NCBI GenBank assembly: GCA_040222015.1
Contig: JAVJWO010000074.1
Coordinates: forward strand, 1-10,724
Length of the DNA stretch: 10,724 nt
From: Coleofasciculus chthonoplastes F2-STO-03
GTDB taxonomy: Bacteria > Cyanobacteriota > Cyanobacteriia > Cyanobacteriales > Coleofasciculaceae
Reading direction: 5' to 3'
This document shows, piece after piece, positions 1,752 to 8,301 of this stretch (the first letter of the stretch is position 1; each line of letters starts with the position of its first letter). The notes under the pieces were generated by a model, which ran no database searches, was not told the DNA's origin, and saw only the letters and a program-made list of their open reading frames with translations. The translations under genes were made by a program, and so were the position numbers.

Positions 1752-1825
1752 CACTTAAGTGGTTACTAATAGGACTTGTTAAGGTTGGATAAGAACTGTC
1801 ACAGAAAACTACAGATACTGTACCG

Positions 1826-1831
1826 ATTATA
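1826..1831 (-). promoter_or_regulatory. Candidate -10 element (TATAAT) for rpaA
   Basis: ATTATA on the + strand reads TATAAT on the - strand, about 75 nt upstream of the rpaA start. Confidence 0.4.
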
Positions 1832-1895
1832 AGCGCTGATTCTAAACTACTTGTGAAGAAAATGGAAATTTTCTGTTTTTTTTCGGTAAATAAGG

Positions 1896-1901: not shown

Positions 1902-1941
1902 TTATTGCTTTCTTTAATTAATCCCCTTTTTGTCCTAGCGA

Positions 1942-2176
1942 GTCAACGACCCGCGCTTCATCCGTAAGGATAGAAGCGGGGCGTGAAAACGTCCATAGTT
2001 GACCAGCCTGAGTCTTAAATGACTACGCTATTGAAGCCATCACACCTATGAATGCGTTGAGCCAGTTTATAGCTCTGTGGCTTGTCATTAAACATCCGAG
2101 TTGGGTTGAGGAAGTGTGGCAATCATGACAAACTTCAATAGCATTGGCGAGGCTCACATTACCCGTTTAACGGAGG
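1942..2176 (+). ncRNA. IscB-type omega-RNA (HEARO) scaffold, stand-alone (no iscB)
   Basis: Motif order matches IscB omega-RNAs: GTCAAC(GACCC)...GTTGACCAGCCTGAG...GACTACG...CACC..TGCG..GCCAG..CTCTGT..TTAAACA..AGTG..CATTGGCGAGGC..ATTACCCG..GGAGG. Helices: GTCAAC 1942-47/GTTGAC 1998-2003; CGCTTC-ATCC[GTAA]GGAT-A-GAAGCG 1954-78; AGTC/GACT 2011-24; perfect 10-bp GCTATTGAAG 2027-36/CTTCAATAGC 2133-42; CTATGAA 2046-52/TTTATAG 2066-72; pseudoknot GCCAG 2061-65/TTGGC 2144-48; AGCCT 2005-09/AGGCT 2150-54. Confidence 0.85.
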
Positions 2177-2242
2177 ACAAGAAGTTGAACACATTCAACC
2201 TCGTAGTCGAGGTGGTTCTAATAGACCTCCCTGAAGCAGACC

Positions 2243-4357
2243 CTAGTTATCATCATCCTCTTCAGATGACTCCCGGTTCGATTCTTTTTTCAACTCCTCA
2301 AGTTCACGCTGCGTTTGCTCTTTCCCCCGCTTTGCCTCTTTGTAATCGGGTTGATACGTCAAAGCGTTTTCATAAGAGGTCAATGCTTCACTGTATCGCT
2401 TTAGGTTAAATAGAGCATTAGCGCGACTATTCCAGGCTTGGTAATAGCTGCGCTTATGGGCAACAGCTTGGTCATACGCCGCGATCGCGTCTTGGTATCG
2501 TTGCAATATATAGAAGACATTCCCCCGGTTATACCAGGCTTGCTCCGAATTGGGTCTCAGTTTCACCGCCTTCTCGTAAGCCGTTAATGCTTCATCATAA
2601 CGCTCCAATTTATGCAACGCCCAAGCTCGACCATACCACGCCTCATAACTGTTGGGCTGAAGTTTAACCGCTTCTTCAAATGCGGCTAACGCTTCTTGAT
2701 ACTGGCTTAACTTGTTTAAAATACTGCCCTGACTGTACCACGCTCGATAAAAATCTGGCTGAAATTGAACCGCTTTCTGGTAAGACTCCACCGCGTCACG
2801 GTGTTTGTTTAAATTGACAAACGCATTACCCCGTTGATACCAAGATTCGGCGAAATCGGGCTTATATTCTATGGCTTGGTCGTAGGATTGAAGCGCCTCT
2901 TCATACTGTTGTAAATTATGGAATGCCCAGCCACGCTGATACCAGGCTGAGGCATAATTGGGTTGAATCTCTAAGGCTTTATCGTAAGATGCGATCGCCG
3001 CCGAATAGCGCTGTAACTCCATCTGTACCATCCCGCGACGTTCCCAGGTTTCCACGTCCTCCGGTTGCATTTTCGTTACCTGATCAAACGCACTAATCGC
3101 GGCTTCATAACGCTGCAATGCAACTAACGCCTCTCCTCGTCCTTTCCACGCCTCTGGATACTCACGCTGAATTTGAATCGCCTGATCATAAGCATCCAAC
3201 GCCGCCTCAGACTGACCCAATGCCAAAAGCGCATCCCCTTGACCCAGCCAAGCTTCAGCATAGTCCGGTTGCAGTTCAACGGCACGATTATAAGCGCTGA
3301 GGGCGTCCTCATACCGCCTCAACTCCAGCAGTGTTTCACCTCGGTTATAGGATTGAGTCGCGTTGGTGGAATTAATCCAATTGATAATCCCGATTGTCGC
3401 CCCTCCTCCAGCCGCTATTATCGCCCCAGTAATCAAGAACGCCAGTATCAGTTTCTGCCGTTGAGACGATTGAGGAACAGGTGGTAGGGATGGGGATGTC
3501 GCCGCTACAGCCACCGTCGCCTTCGTGGGTTGGGTTAAATCCTGCAACGCCTGCACAGCAGCTTCCGCAGAGGGGTAACGTTGGCGAAAATCGTAGCGGA
3601 TCATTTTATCCAGAACTTTCGCCAACTCTGGAGAAACCGAGGTGCGATCGCGCCAGCACAGTTCTCCACTGTCGGGATCAACGGGCAGTTCCTGAGGCGC
3701 TACCCCGGTTAATGCTTGAATCCCCACAATTCCCACCGCATAGATATCACTACTCAAACGGGGATTCCCATTGGCTTGTTCACTGGGTCGATATCCCGGC
3801 GTACCAATCGCCACCGTAAAGCTAGAGGATTTTCCCTGCACTATCTGAGTGCTAACTTGTTTAACCGCGCCAAAATCAATTAGGACTAACTTGCGATCGC
3901 ATTTACGCCGGATCAGGTTGTGGGGATTAATATCTCGGTGAATCACATGATGCTGATGAACAAACGCTAATATAGTCAGGATTTCCTGCAACAGATCAAT
4001 CACCTGCTGATCTGACCAAGACGTTCCCGGCGTCAATTCTTTACTCAGATTATCCCCTTCAACCAGTTCCTGCACCAAATAAAATTCTTGACTCTCTTCA
4101 AAATAGGCAAATAGCTGCGGAATTTGGTTGTGATGACCCAACTGATGCAGGATTTTAGCTTCCGTTTCAAACAAACGCCGCGCCGTCTGCAAGGTAAACG
4201 GGTCAGTCGCTTGGGGTTTGAGTTGCTTCACCACACAATCGCGATCGCTAGGCAAATGTTGGTCTTGGGCGACAAATGTAGCACCAAACCCACCTTGTCC
4301 CAGTTGCCGCAAGATATTATAGCGTCCACCAATTGTTTGTCCGAGAGCCAAGTTCAT
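2243..4357 (-). CDS. Pkn2-type serine/threonine protein kinase with one TM segment and 10 TPR repeats
   Basis: Kinase motifs LGQGGFG, CVVKQL, HRDINPHN, DFG, GTPGY and DIYAVG. Hydrophobic segment LILAFLITGAIIAAGGGATIGII. Ten 34-aa TPRs (AW..RG..L..L..Y.EA...Y..A....P). Confidence 0.93.
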   Translation of the reverse strand: MNLALGQTIGGRYNILRQLGQGGFGATFVAQDQHLPSDRDCVVKQLKPQATDPFTLQTARRLFETEAKILHQLGHHNQIPQLFAYFEESQEFYLVQELVEGDNLSKELTPGTSWSDQQVIDLLQEILTILAFVHQHHVIHRDINPHNLIRRKCDRKLVLIDFGAVKQVSTQIVQGKSSSFTVAIGTPGYRPSEQANGNPRLSSDIYAVGIVGIQALTGVAPQELPVDPDSGELCWRDRTSVSPELAKVLDKMIRYDFRQRYPSAEAAVQALQDLTQPTKATVAVAATSPSLPPVPQSSQRQKLILAFLITGAIIAAGGGATIGIINWINSTNATQSYNRGETLLELRRYEDALSAYNRAVELQPDYAEAWLGQGDALLALGQSEAALDAYDQAIQIQREYPEAWKGRGEALVALQRYEAAISAFDQVTKMQPEDVETWERRGMVQMELQRYSAAIASYDKALEIQPNYASAWYQRGWAFHNLQQYEEALQSYDQAIEYKPDFAESWYQRGNAFVNLNKHRDAVESYQKAVQFQPDFYRAWYSQGSILNKLSQYQEALAAFEEAVKLQPNSYEAWYGRAWALHKLERYDEALTAYEKAVKLRPNSEQAWYNRGNVFYILQRYQDAIAAYDQAVAHKRSYYQAWNSRANALFNLKRYSEALTSYENALTYQPDYKEAKRGKEQTQRELEELKKESNRESSEEDDDN

Positions 4358-5675: not shown

Positions 5676-6041
5676 TCATCTTTCAAAAGGATTTAATAAC
5701 TGTAATTCCTCAATCCATTGAAAGTTATTTACATTCCGGGTGACTAATATAAGATTATGTGTTAGAGCCGTTCCTGCGATAATGGCATCTCCTACCGTCA
5801 TGCGTCTCATTTGGCGTAGTGCTACAGCTTGATTTAAAACAGGCTGCGAAATTGGCAAGACTAACGCTACCGCAAAAAATTCATCCAGAAGTTGGCGCTC
5901 CATCTCCGTCAAACGATGATAGCCCAATGTTTCAACGTAACTGAGTGCAGAAACGGCTGAATCATGGTTGGCAATGAATTCACGTAACCAGGCATATTCA
6001 GGGCGAGTTGCGTAAATGATAATATTGCTATCCAGCAGCAT
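5676..6041 (-). CDS. vapC: VapC-family PIN-domain toxin
   Basis: PIN motifs MLLDSNIIIY, SALSYVE, DAIIAGTAL and LVTRN..NF. GGAGGAG RBS (6054-6048) supports ATG 6041 rather than 6065. Confidence 0.88.
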   Translation of the reverse strand: MLLDSNIIIYATRPEYAWLREFIANHDSAVSALSYVETLGYHRLTEMERQLLDEFFAVALVLPISQPVLNQAVALRQMRRMTVGDAIIAGTALTHNLILVTRNVNNFQWIEELQLLNPFER

Positions 6042-6306
6042 CATTCGCTCCTCCAGGGCGTTCACGATCCTGTCTGATCTGGCGCTGCCATACCAACGGA
6101 TCGATTTCTGAAAATGCCTGTGACTGCGCTAATTTTTCGAGTATTGCTGCCATTTGTTGCCCACGATTATGGGTTATAGTGATCGCCTCTTCGTCTAGAA
6201 AAGTAACCAGAACCTGAACAGTGCGATCGCCCTGAAACCACTGATTGACTTCCTCTTGCCATTCCAGTAAATTTCCTTTCAGGATTGCCCGAAATGTATG
6301 CAGCAT
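6028..6306 (-). CDS. Putative antitoxin paired with VapC
   Basis: 92-aa ORF immediately upstream of vapC and overlapping it by 14 nt. Beta-rich N-terminus (TFRAILKGNLLEW..VQVLVTFL) and C-terminal DPLVWQRQIRQDR. Confidence 0.7.
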   Translation of the reverse strand: MLHTFRAILKGNLLEWQEEVNQWFQGDRTVQVLVTFLDEEAITITHNRGQQMAAILEKLAQSQAFSEIDPLVWQRQIRQDRERPGGANDAAG

Positions 6307-6681: not shown

Positions 6682-8301
6682 ATGACAACCACAAAAGCCT
6701 TGCAATTTATGCGGAGAACCGCAGAAGATGAACAACTACAGCAACGCCTAGGGGAATTGATCGGGGTTGGTGATGGGGATATCAGTAGTCAAATGGAACT
6801 CGATGAAGCAGAAGCCGACGCCTTGACGGGCGATCGCGCCCCCTTGGTGGTGAAGTTAGCATCCCAGCAGGGGTTTGAGTTTTCCGTTGACGATTTAAGA
6901 ACCGTCGTCGATGCCTTTGGGCGGTATCAGTTAGGAGAACTCTCGGAAGCCGAGTTCTCGCAACGGATTGGATTATCCAACTTAGAGCAAAACACACCAG
7001 ACAGTATTCCCTCGATTAAAAAGACATTAGAATTTGTCTATCGGGGGACTCGCTATCAACGAATTAATGGCAAACTCGTTCCTGTTATCCAACCCACTAA
7101 TTCTACGCCCAGTGTTCTGGAATTTATGCACAAGACATCTGAAGATCAGGGCTTACAGCAACAATTAGCGACAGTGTTGGGGGTTGGTGATGGAGATATC
7201 AGTAGTCAAATGGAACTCGATGAAGCCGAAGCCGACGCCTTGACGGGCGATCGCGCTCCATTAGTTGTTCAGTTTGCCGCCCAGCAGGGGTTTAACTTTT
7301 CCGTTGAAGACTTAAGAACAACGGTAGATGCGTTTCAACAGTATCAATCAGGCGAAATATCGGCTAACGATTTCTCAAAGATTATTTGTGTATCGAACCT
7401 AGATCAGGGAACAAAAGAAAGTATCTCCTCGATTAACAAAACCTTAGACTATGTCTATCGAGGGACTCGTTATAAACGCATTAATGGTAAGCTAGTCCCC
7501 GTACACGAATCGGTGAATTCTACACCCAATGTCCTGCAATTTATGCAGAAAACGGCTGATGATCCCGAAGTTAAACAAAAATTAGAAGCATTATTGGGAG
7601 TCGGTGACGGCGATATTAGTAGCCATGCCGAATTGGATCAGCAAGAAGCCGCTGCGTTAATCGGCGATCGCGCCCCGTTAGTGGTGAAATTTGCGGCTCA
7701 ACATGGGTTTGACTTTTCCGTTGAACAACTCACCACAGTTGTTGATGGCTTTGTGCGATATAAATCCAATGAACTATCCGATCAAGAGTTAGCTAAAATT
7801 CTGGGATTGTCTGATCAAAAGACACCAGCAAGTTTACCCTCAATTAAACAAACTCTAGAGTTTGTCTATCGCGGAACTCGTTACCAAAAAATTAATGGAC
7901 AATTGGTTCCCGTGGAAAAACCAGCAACGACTGTTCCCAAAGTGTTACAGTTTATGCAGAAAACCGCCGAAGATAAACAACTCCAACAACAACTGGGAAC
8001 ATTACTCGGTGTGGGCGATGGAGACATTAGTAGTTATTCAGAACTCGACACCGCAGAAGCACAAGCCCTCACGAATAACGCCCCGGTGGTGGTAGAGTTT
8101 GCTGCCAAACAGGGTTTTGAGTTTTCCAAAGAGGATTTAATTCGGGTTGTTGATGCCTTTGCACAGTATCAGTCGGGTGAATTATCTGAGAAGGAGTTCT
8201 CCAAAATTATTGGCTTTTCCAGTCAAGGAACGAAAGAAAGTTTTCCTACCCTCAAAAAGCTCGTCAGTTTTCTATCGGGCGGTGCGGGTTCCCCTAACTA
8301 G
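6682..8301 (+). CDS. Tandem-repeat protein with four Nif11-leader-like units, function unknown
   Basis: 539-aa open frame. Each unit reads LQFM.KT.ED..LQQ.L...[GVGDGDISS..ELD..EA.AL]...VV.FAA.QGF.FS.EDL......ELS..E(F/L). The first three units continue with (F/Y)VYRGTRY..ING.LVPV. Confidence 0.8.
   Translation: MTTTKALQFMRRTAEDEQLQQRLGELIGVGDGDISSQMELDEAEADALTGDRAPLVVKLASQQGFEFSVDDLRTVVDAFGRYQLGELSEAEFSQRIGLSNLEQNTPDSIPSIKKTLEFVYRGTRYQRINGKLVPVIQPTNSTPSVLEFMHKTSEDQGLQQQLATVLGVGDGDISSQMELDEAEADALTGDRAPLVVQFAAQQGFNFSVEDLRTTVDAFQQYQSGEISANDFSKIICVSNLDQGTKESISSINKTLDYVYRGTRYKRINGKLVPVHESVNSTPNVLQFMQKTADDPEVKQKLEALLGVGDGDISSHAELDQQEAAALIGDRAPLVVKFAAQHGFDFSVEQLTTVVDGFVRYKSNELSDQELAKILGLSDQKTPASLPSIKQTLEFVYRGTRYQKINGQLVPVEKPATTVPKVLQFMQKTAEDKQLQQQLGTLLGVGDGDISSYSELDTAEAQALTNNAPVVVEFAAKQGFEFSKEDLIRVVDAFAQYQSGELSEKEFSKIIGFSSQGTKESFPTLKKLVSFLSGGAGSPN
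6697..8298 (+). repeat. Intragenic tandem repeat, 4 units (spacing 417, 417, 411 nt; last unit shortened)
   Basis: Homologous FM Met codons at 6709, 7126, 7543 and 7954. Confidence 0.9.

Follow-up and report, generated by a model that had tools for sequence, protein, structure and literature searches.

The DNA analyzed here, called the window below, is the stretch of 10,724 nucleotides (nt) at positions 1 to 10,724 of contig JAVJWO010000074.1 of Coleofasciculus chthonoplastes F2-STO-03. The interval of interest lies between two genes on the minus strand. The gene at 1002–1754, with its ATG at 1751, encodes the clock-output response regulator RpaA. It matches RpaA in PDB 9dvt over residues 2–238 with an E-value of 7.9e-142, in agreement with the initial annotation, which had called this divergent gene rpaA. 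The named members of the RpaA cluster include Coleofasciculus and Crocosphaera. The other gene, at 2243–4357, encodes a Ser/Thr kinase with TPR repeats. Both genes are neighbors and lie outside the element described below.

The remaining part of the window contains several other features. At 6682–8301 on the plus strand, a 539-aa protein is encoded that has four tandem repeats and matches to Nif11-like leader peptides (Pfam PF07862, TIGR03798). It is unusually long for such a precursor. At 5676–6306 on the minus strand, a PIN/VapC-type gene (129 aa) is overlapped by a 92-aa ORF that matches no family, and the two are probably a toxin-antitoxin pair. Two similar short repeat units (CCCTAAACCCGCCCCTACAGACAAAT) are present at 115–135, after a redoxin gene, and at 935–955, after rpaA.

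The comparison of 30 upstream regions reveals a block at 1755–1860 (minus strand), conserved in the family and the order, that ends near 1860 as judged by eye. The minus-strand TATAAT at 1826–1831 is the probable −10 of rpaA. Another TATAAT, at 1896–1901 on the plus strand, is a candidate divergent −10. It is seen in seven of eight congeners, and the eighth has TAAAAT. All of them lack the element, so this TATAAT must be older than the insertion. Cyanobacterial promoters often have only a −10. The promoter scan found no −35/−10 pair on the plus strand. Transcription of the plus strand from the conserved TATAAT, 40 nt upstream of the scaffold, is plausible and would include the guide. Of the 24 sequencing runs retrieved, only one, a DNA run (X1), contains at least half of the words, and the fraction is 0.13–0.16 in six RNA runs, none of which carries the allele of the window. 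The RNA contigs of runs X16 and X17 represent the allele of a relative that departs at 1901, and they say nothing on the transcription of the scaffold. The TATAAT facing away from rpaA is kept among the congeners although the DNA after it differs. It might serve the genus as a divergent promoter or as a binding site.

The scaffold itself starts at 1942. Using cmscan, a match to Rfam HEARO (RF02033) was found at 1942–2162 on the plus strand. The match covers model positions 1–211 of 211, which is the full length, and its score is 143.1 bits against a gathering score of 83 (E = 1.3e-30). It is the sole Rfam match with E ≤ 1 in the window. The omega-RNA scaffold is thus real, and its identification as an IscB omega-RNA by the initial annotation holds.

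When 40 relatives were searched at the DNA level, the scaffold turned up with 93% identity in the congeners G003 and G005, in both cases at a locus that has nothing to do with rpaA. There, each scaffold heads a complete element with an intact iscB (1588 bp in G003 and 1636 bp in G005). The product of the iscB in G003 is a 435-aa protein named IscB. These intact elements are considered here as the parents. The identity of 92.5–92.9% to scaffolds located directly 5′ of intact iscB genes indicates that the scaffold in the window descends from an iscB-linked one.

Only two segments of the window match the parent. The positions 1942–2180 (plus strand), which include the scaffold, its terminal hairpin and the RBS, correspond to parent nt 1–241 with 92.5% identity, and represent the 5′ end of an ISC2 transposon. 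The positions 2181–2227 (plus strand) correspond to parent nt 864–910 with 91.5% identity. These 47 nt are a part of iscB from codon 208 and encode the HNH motif. At the junction 2180/2181, 622 nt of the parent including the start codon of iscB are absent. At the junction 2227/2228, all parent sequence after codon ~223 is absent, including the 3′ end. Only 16 codons of iscB are left. That no iscB fits here had been noted in the initial annotation, and indeed the stop codon of the kinase (2243–2245, minus strand) closes the interval. The scaffold had also been described as an orphan. This is correct insofar as there is no iscB ORF, but the 47-nt HNH fragment was missed, and the locus is not a clean stand-alone unit. 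This fragment differs from the parent at four positions. Three of the changes are synonymous; the remaining one, H to Q, also occurs in the IscB of contig C77 of the same genome. The fragment still looks like coding sequence.

The structure of the scaffold is well preserved. The perfect 10-bp stem is formed by 2027–2036 and 2133–2142. All three sequences folded, the window and its two parents, have the 5-bp pairing of 2005–2009 with 2150–2154, which fits the pseudoknot described at the outset, and the terminal CCGT/ACGG hairpin. GGAGG comes next at 2172–2176. The stem, the hairpin with its RBS, the TATAAT at 1896–1901 and the kinase stop codon all lie where the initial annotation put them. The fold of 1908–2242 has a z-score of −4.1, and none of 100 shuffled sequences folds as well. 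Of 75 predicted pairs, 70 are identical in all three sequences, one shows a compensatory change and two show one-sided changes. The other two are broken in one sequence; pair 142/184 is broken in the window. The scaffold in the window (143 bits) scores like those of the intact parents (144.6 and 139.3 bits). Given this score and the compensatory pair, the RNA could still fold and load. The preserved pairing had been taken as a possible sign of selection. The pairing is explained by youth, given the equal scores and the coding-like piece of iscB, and the suggestion of selection is not supported.

In the predicted fold of 1908–2242, nucleotides 1926–1936 of the guide pair with 2174–2184. This pairing of 11 bp, with one G-U, spans the RBS and the deletion junction, and would hinder the loading of the guide. 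Such complementarity might keep the guide sequestered; alternatively, it may have served as a template for the deletion or be due to chance.

A contig assembled from run X1 is more than 99% alike to the window (6 differences in 1401 nt) and has 196 extra letters exactly at 2180/2181. In the simplest reading they represent an intermediate deletion, which fits a stepwise decay, although an unrelated insertion is possible. The decay series, with intact elements in G003 and G005, 196 extra letters in X1 and none of them in the window, is a useful by-product of the analysis.

The terminal 3′ hairpin of the parent and the following CTGGA were not found in the window. The 15 nt at 2228–2242, which separate the second deletion junction from the stop codon of the kinase, contain neither the 3′ end of the element, nor its TAM, nor the right part of the repeat into which it was inserted. 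In the two parent elements and the six congener loci searched, nothing closer than 3 differences to these 15 nt was found. These observations bear on the proposal that the locus is a mobile mini-element (PATE) held in place by excision and homing with an IscB acting in trans. The initial annotation had raised it as a non-autonomous element kept by a trans IscB. In its favor, the genome has 17 Y1_Tnp matches, and in several of its other orphan omega-RNAs a 3′ end is still visible, with GATGA or GTGGA after it (by eye). The copy in the window, however, has lost the parent 3′ hairpin together with the TAM, only the 15 nt are left, and no sibling copy exists. It should thus be unable to excise and to recreate its target, and the proposal is very improbable.

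The insertion site can be read from empty alleles. In G002 and G007, the alignment with the window runs to 1941, and the sequence beyond it lacks the element. The break is exactly at 1941/1942, where G007 goes on with CTGGA and G002 with CCGGA. This is where the guide was expected to end, if it came from the flank 5′ of the scaffold. The rpaA side is present in all eight congeners; the interval between rpaA and the kinase is assembled in five, rearranged in one, and in two the sequence ends shortly after the site. HEARO is absent from all ten loci covering the rpaA site in the eight congeners. The insertion is recent, as had been suggested as one of two options. The interval beside rpaA is unstable in other ways. 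In G003 (L074, 1924–3739) it contains an unrelated ORF of at least 330 aa, and in G007 (L043) it is rearranged relative to the kinase.

According to Kapitonov et al. (PMC4810608), ISC elements have GT at their start and are inserted at, or immediately before, a 4-bp site without duplication, and derivatives that carry no gene (PATEs) exist. In the family of the window element, CTGGA follows the 3′ end in three of three close family ends: G003, G005, and C170:53355–53476 of the same genome. The elements of G003 and G005 diverge from each other right after the 3′ CTGGA. At the empty site that corresponds to the G003 copy, the genome of the window and G004 both go on with CTGGG, and 13 nt are present in excess of a clean excision. 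The empty site of the G005 copy is uninformative. The related loci of the parent IscB were taken as the best 80 of 240 in genome contigs; the TAM rests on few copies, since the 3′-end motif matches only 2 of these 80, the same two that are above 64% identity. Among plasmids, 22 records are 60–80% identical, and none covers 80% of the parent. When metagenomes were scanned for a 22-nt pattern taken from the start of the element, two loci came up, both chance matches in unrelated coding DNA. The native TAM of CTGG/CTGGA for one IscB subfamily, read from filled and empty sites, is another useful by-product. In the initial annotation, an alignment of the empty site with an adjacent TAM was anticipated. 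The empty site is found at 1941/1942 with CTGGA in G007, but the TAM is gone from the window. The end in C170 consists only of the 3′ end of the same ISC family (123 nt, 89% identity). It sits directly after an IsrB element, and CTGGA comes next. This end is a second remnant of the family in the genome.

The 22 nt before 1942 (1920–1941, plus strand) form the left arm of a repeat that is dispersed in the genome; this arm served as the insertion target, and its last ~16 nt are the would-be guide. An nhmmer search (E ≤ 0.01) with a profile from five genomic copies found 124 matches, 94 of which are near full length. We take this repeat to resemble the small dispersed repeats described from Nostoc. 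The arm is present at the rpaA locus in only two of the eight congeners. The 16-nt flank lies 175–190 nt from the ATG of rpaA, close to the distance given in the initial annotation, and ~65 nt beyond the end of the conserved upstream block. Judged from these sequences, the guide is an arm of a dispersed repeat; it is not specific to rpaA and is not promoter DNA of rpaA.

It had also been proposed that the RNA is a guide module aimed at the rpaA upstream region. In this case the locus would be a domesticated module, similar to TldR, that brings a possibly dead IscB-like protein there. The position relative to the rpaA start and the intact scaffold are compatible with it, and TldR repressors derived from TnpB are a precedent (bioRxiv 10.1101/2023.11.30.569447). 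The guide-matching DNA in the window is nevertheless followed by GTCAA, which belongs to the element itself and is not a TAM. According to Meers et al. (bioRxiv 10.1101/2023.03.14.532601), single-base changes in the TAM abolish cleavage by IscB and leave the omega-RNA locus itself unrecognized. The RNA is found at this site in none of the eight congeners, the guide is a repeat arm outside the conserved block, and a piece of iscB is still attached. The RuvC D/E/D residues are kept (by eye) in the four full-length IscBs, in the C-terminally frameshifted IscB of C12 and in six long IsrB-like ORFs, and no nuclease-dead IscB or IsrB is present among these five IscBs and six IsrB-like ORFs. This reading is largely refuted and hardly credible. 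With GTCAA after the guide DNA and with the 3′ end and TAM deleted, neither excision nor targeting of the rpaA region would be expected, and the closeness to rpaA is incidental.

The RNA might instead recognize other copies of the repeat. Of 107 copies that cover the junction, seven continue with CTGGA. The closest near-match is in C10, with 2 mismatches in 16 nt (20 of 22 nt identical) followed by CTGGA; one mismatch is 5 nt from the TAM. A site in C71 has 3 mismatches in 16 nt and is also followed by CTGGA. No perfect target besides the locus itself is present in the genome. Mismatches were counted only in sites anchored to CTGGA; counts from the repeat alignment are too high for the TTGAA subfamily, where the junction is off by one base. 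Of the 19,341 CTGGA sites, 2 have ≤3 mismatches, while 30 shuffled guides gave 0.2 such sites on average and 2 at most. For ≤5 mismatches, 9 sites are observed against a shuffled mean of 6.6, with no clear excess.

Intact iscB and tnpA genes are present in the genome, as the initial annotation proposed to check. There are 35 HEARO matches (26 over the cut-off), 18 RRXRR matches, and the Y1_Tnp (TnpA) matches mentioned above. Among the 26 HEARO copies, eight have an RRXRR/iscB start within 200 nt (five long frames and three internally deleted ones), 16 have no iscB start, and two are at contig ends. Thus 16 of the 24 assessable copies lack iscB, and orphan omega-RNAs are the rule in this genome. 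The search for sibling copies, also proposed, returned none: the element in the window is a single copy without the signs of movement expected of a PATE, and the best blastn match after the locus itself extends over 49 nt. Elsewhere in the genome, GATGA follows the retained 3′ end of many omega-RNA mini-elements that carry no gene, and several of these lie directly at the start codons of host genes (by eye). The mini-elements of the GATGA type are better candidates for guides in trans than the window copy.

Four intact IscB ORFs (427–451 aa) are encoded in C77, C31, C193 and C214, and they are 62, 58, 56 and 27% identical to the parent protein, respectively. The scaffolds of the intact IscBs are 49–64% identical to that of the window. 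The site of the C77 element is ATGAA, as deduced from the comparison of empty sites, with a clean junction in four of five congeners. The elements of C31 and C193 are apparently followed by GTGGA and TTGGA (by eye). Empty sites were seen in none of five genomes for C193, and in one of five, not reaching the junction, for C31. By their flanking sequences, these two intact IscBs may prefer motifs of the NTGG type.

It can be imagined that a transcript from the TATAAT loads the non-cognate IscB of C31 or C193 and acts as a live guide in trans. Its targets would be repeat copies with CTGGA, not rpaA. The scaffold is intact, the C10 and C71 sites and the seven repeat copies bear CTGGA, and IscB binding is strict for the TAM and permissive for mismatches, in the binding data of Meers et al. 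(bioRxiv 10.1101/2023.03.14.532601). These points are outweighed by the failure to find a cognate IscB among the intact ones, as the best are 56–62% identical to the parent and their scaffolds 49–64% identical to that of the window, and by the ATGAA site of the closest of them, C77. The genome also offers the guide no perfect target elsewhere, the guide is paired with 2174–2184 in the predicted fold, and near-matching sites exceed those of shuffled guides only slightly at ≤3 mismatches and not clearly at ≤5. Such a live guide is quite improbable.

Taken together, the locus is very probably an immobile remnant of a recently inserted ISC2 transposon, an IscB-encoding member of the IS200/IS605 superfamily. 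From the comparison with empty and intact copies, an element of ~1.6 kb with omega-RNA and iscB was inserted between 1941 and CTGG(A), in a copy of the dispersed repeat ~190 nt upstream of rpaA. Considering its family, TnpA was probably supplied in trans. Deletions then removed the iscB start with codons ~1–207 and, probably in a later step, everything after codon ~223, so that the 3′ hairpin end of the element was lost along with the TAM and the right portion of the repeat. In intact elements, as outlined in two sources (bioRxiv 10.1101/2023.03.14.532601; PMC13565253), TnpA excises the element, the flank and the TAM are rejoined, and IscB cuts the joint, by which the element is restored. Without a 3′ end, the window copy would not be excised, and no target of guide plus TAM would re-form here. 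Having lost its own IscB, the remnant would be left without a cognate protein. Transcription from the older TATAAT is possible, but the remnant most likely does nothing. It looks intact because it is young, as indicated by the score equal to that of intact parents and by the piece of iscB that is still coding-like.

This account is compatible with an explanation of why the deletion happened. The repeat-derived guide could have aimed the nuclease at copies bearing the TAM, so that cells with iscB deleted survived better. The repeat behind the guide has 124 copies, the one in C10 agrees with the guide at 20 of 22 nt and bears CTGGA, and the undecayed piece of iscB, with three of four changes synonymous, suggests a recent deletion. 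On the other hand, most assessable HEARO copies of this genome lack iscB irrespective of their target (16 of 24), the best self-site is mismatched 5 nt from the TAM, and this is a single case without statistics. Selection for the loss of iscB is unlikely. The broader possibility is a minor one: self-targeting directed by the repeat may have caused the stepwise loss of iscB, or may continue by way of an intact, transcribed omega-RNA that another IscB loads in trans. If true, this would be an example from nature of OMEGA autoimmunity influencing the decay of a transposon, and of a cost limiting where RNA-guided transposons can keep their nuclease. As found, the locus matters little, being one of many decayed IscB elements in the genome. 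No report of an omega-RNA at rpaA was found by title, and its absence from print is not claimed.

The remnant can be compared with four known systems. Stand-alone omega-RNAs that act in trans were reportedly described by Altae-Tran and coworkers in 2021. The window copy resembles them in its intact scaffold away from any iscB and in its flank-derived guide. It differs in that no cognate IscB was found in its genome (62% identity to the parent at best), and no perfect target with a TAM. The TldR repressors that evolved from TnpB (bioRxiv 10.1101/2023.11.30.569447) have nothing in common with the locus beyond the notion of a transposon-derived guide close to a promoter. The locus has no dead effector, as judged by eye from the RuvC residues, no conservation and no TAM at the supposed promoter target. 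PATE-like mini-elements (bioRxiv 10.1101/2023.03.14.532601) are also omega-RNAs without a nuclease gene, in host genomes with many copies and with TnpA and IscB elsewhere. They keep both ends and can move, whereas the window has a single copy with one end, which lacks the second (3′) hairpin end and the TAM after it.

The fourth system is that of the ISC2 transposons (PMC4810608). The window copy has lost what follows their 5′ part: all but 16 codons of iscB, so that 47 nt of the HNH motif remain in place of an ORF with RuvC and HNH, the 3′ terminus and the target motif. The insertion motif here is N|CTGG, against GT|GG, TT|GG and N|ATGA listed for ISC there. The likeness lies in the GTCAAC 5′ terminus at the start of the omega-RNA, the HEARO scaffold, the RBS before iscB, the insertion without duplication before a short motif, and the HNH-type IscB of the parent.
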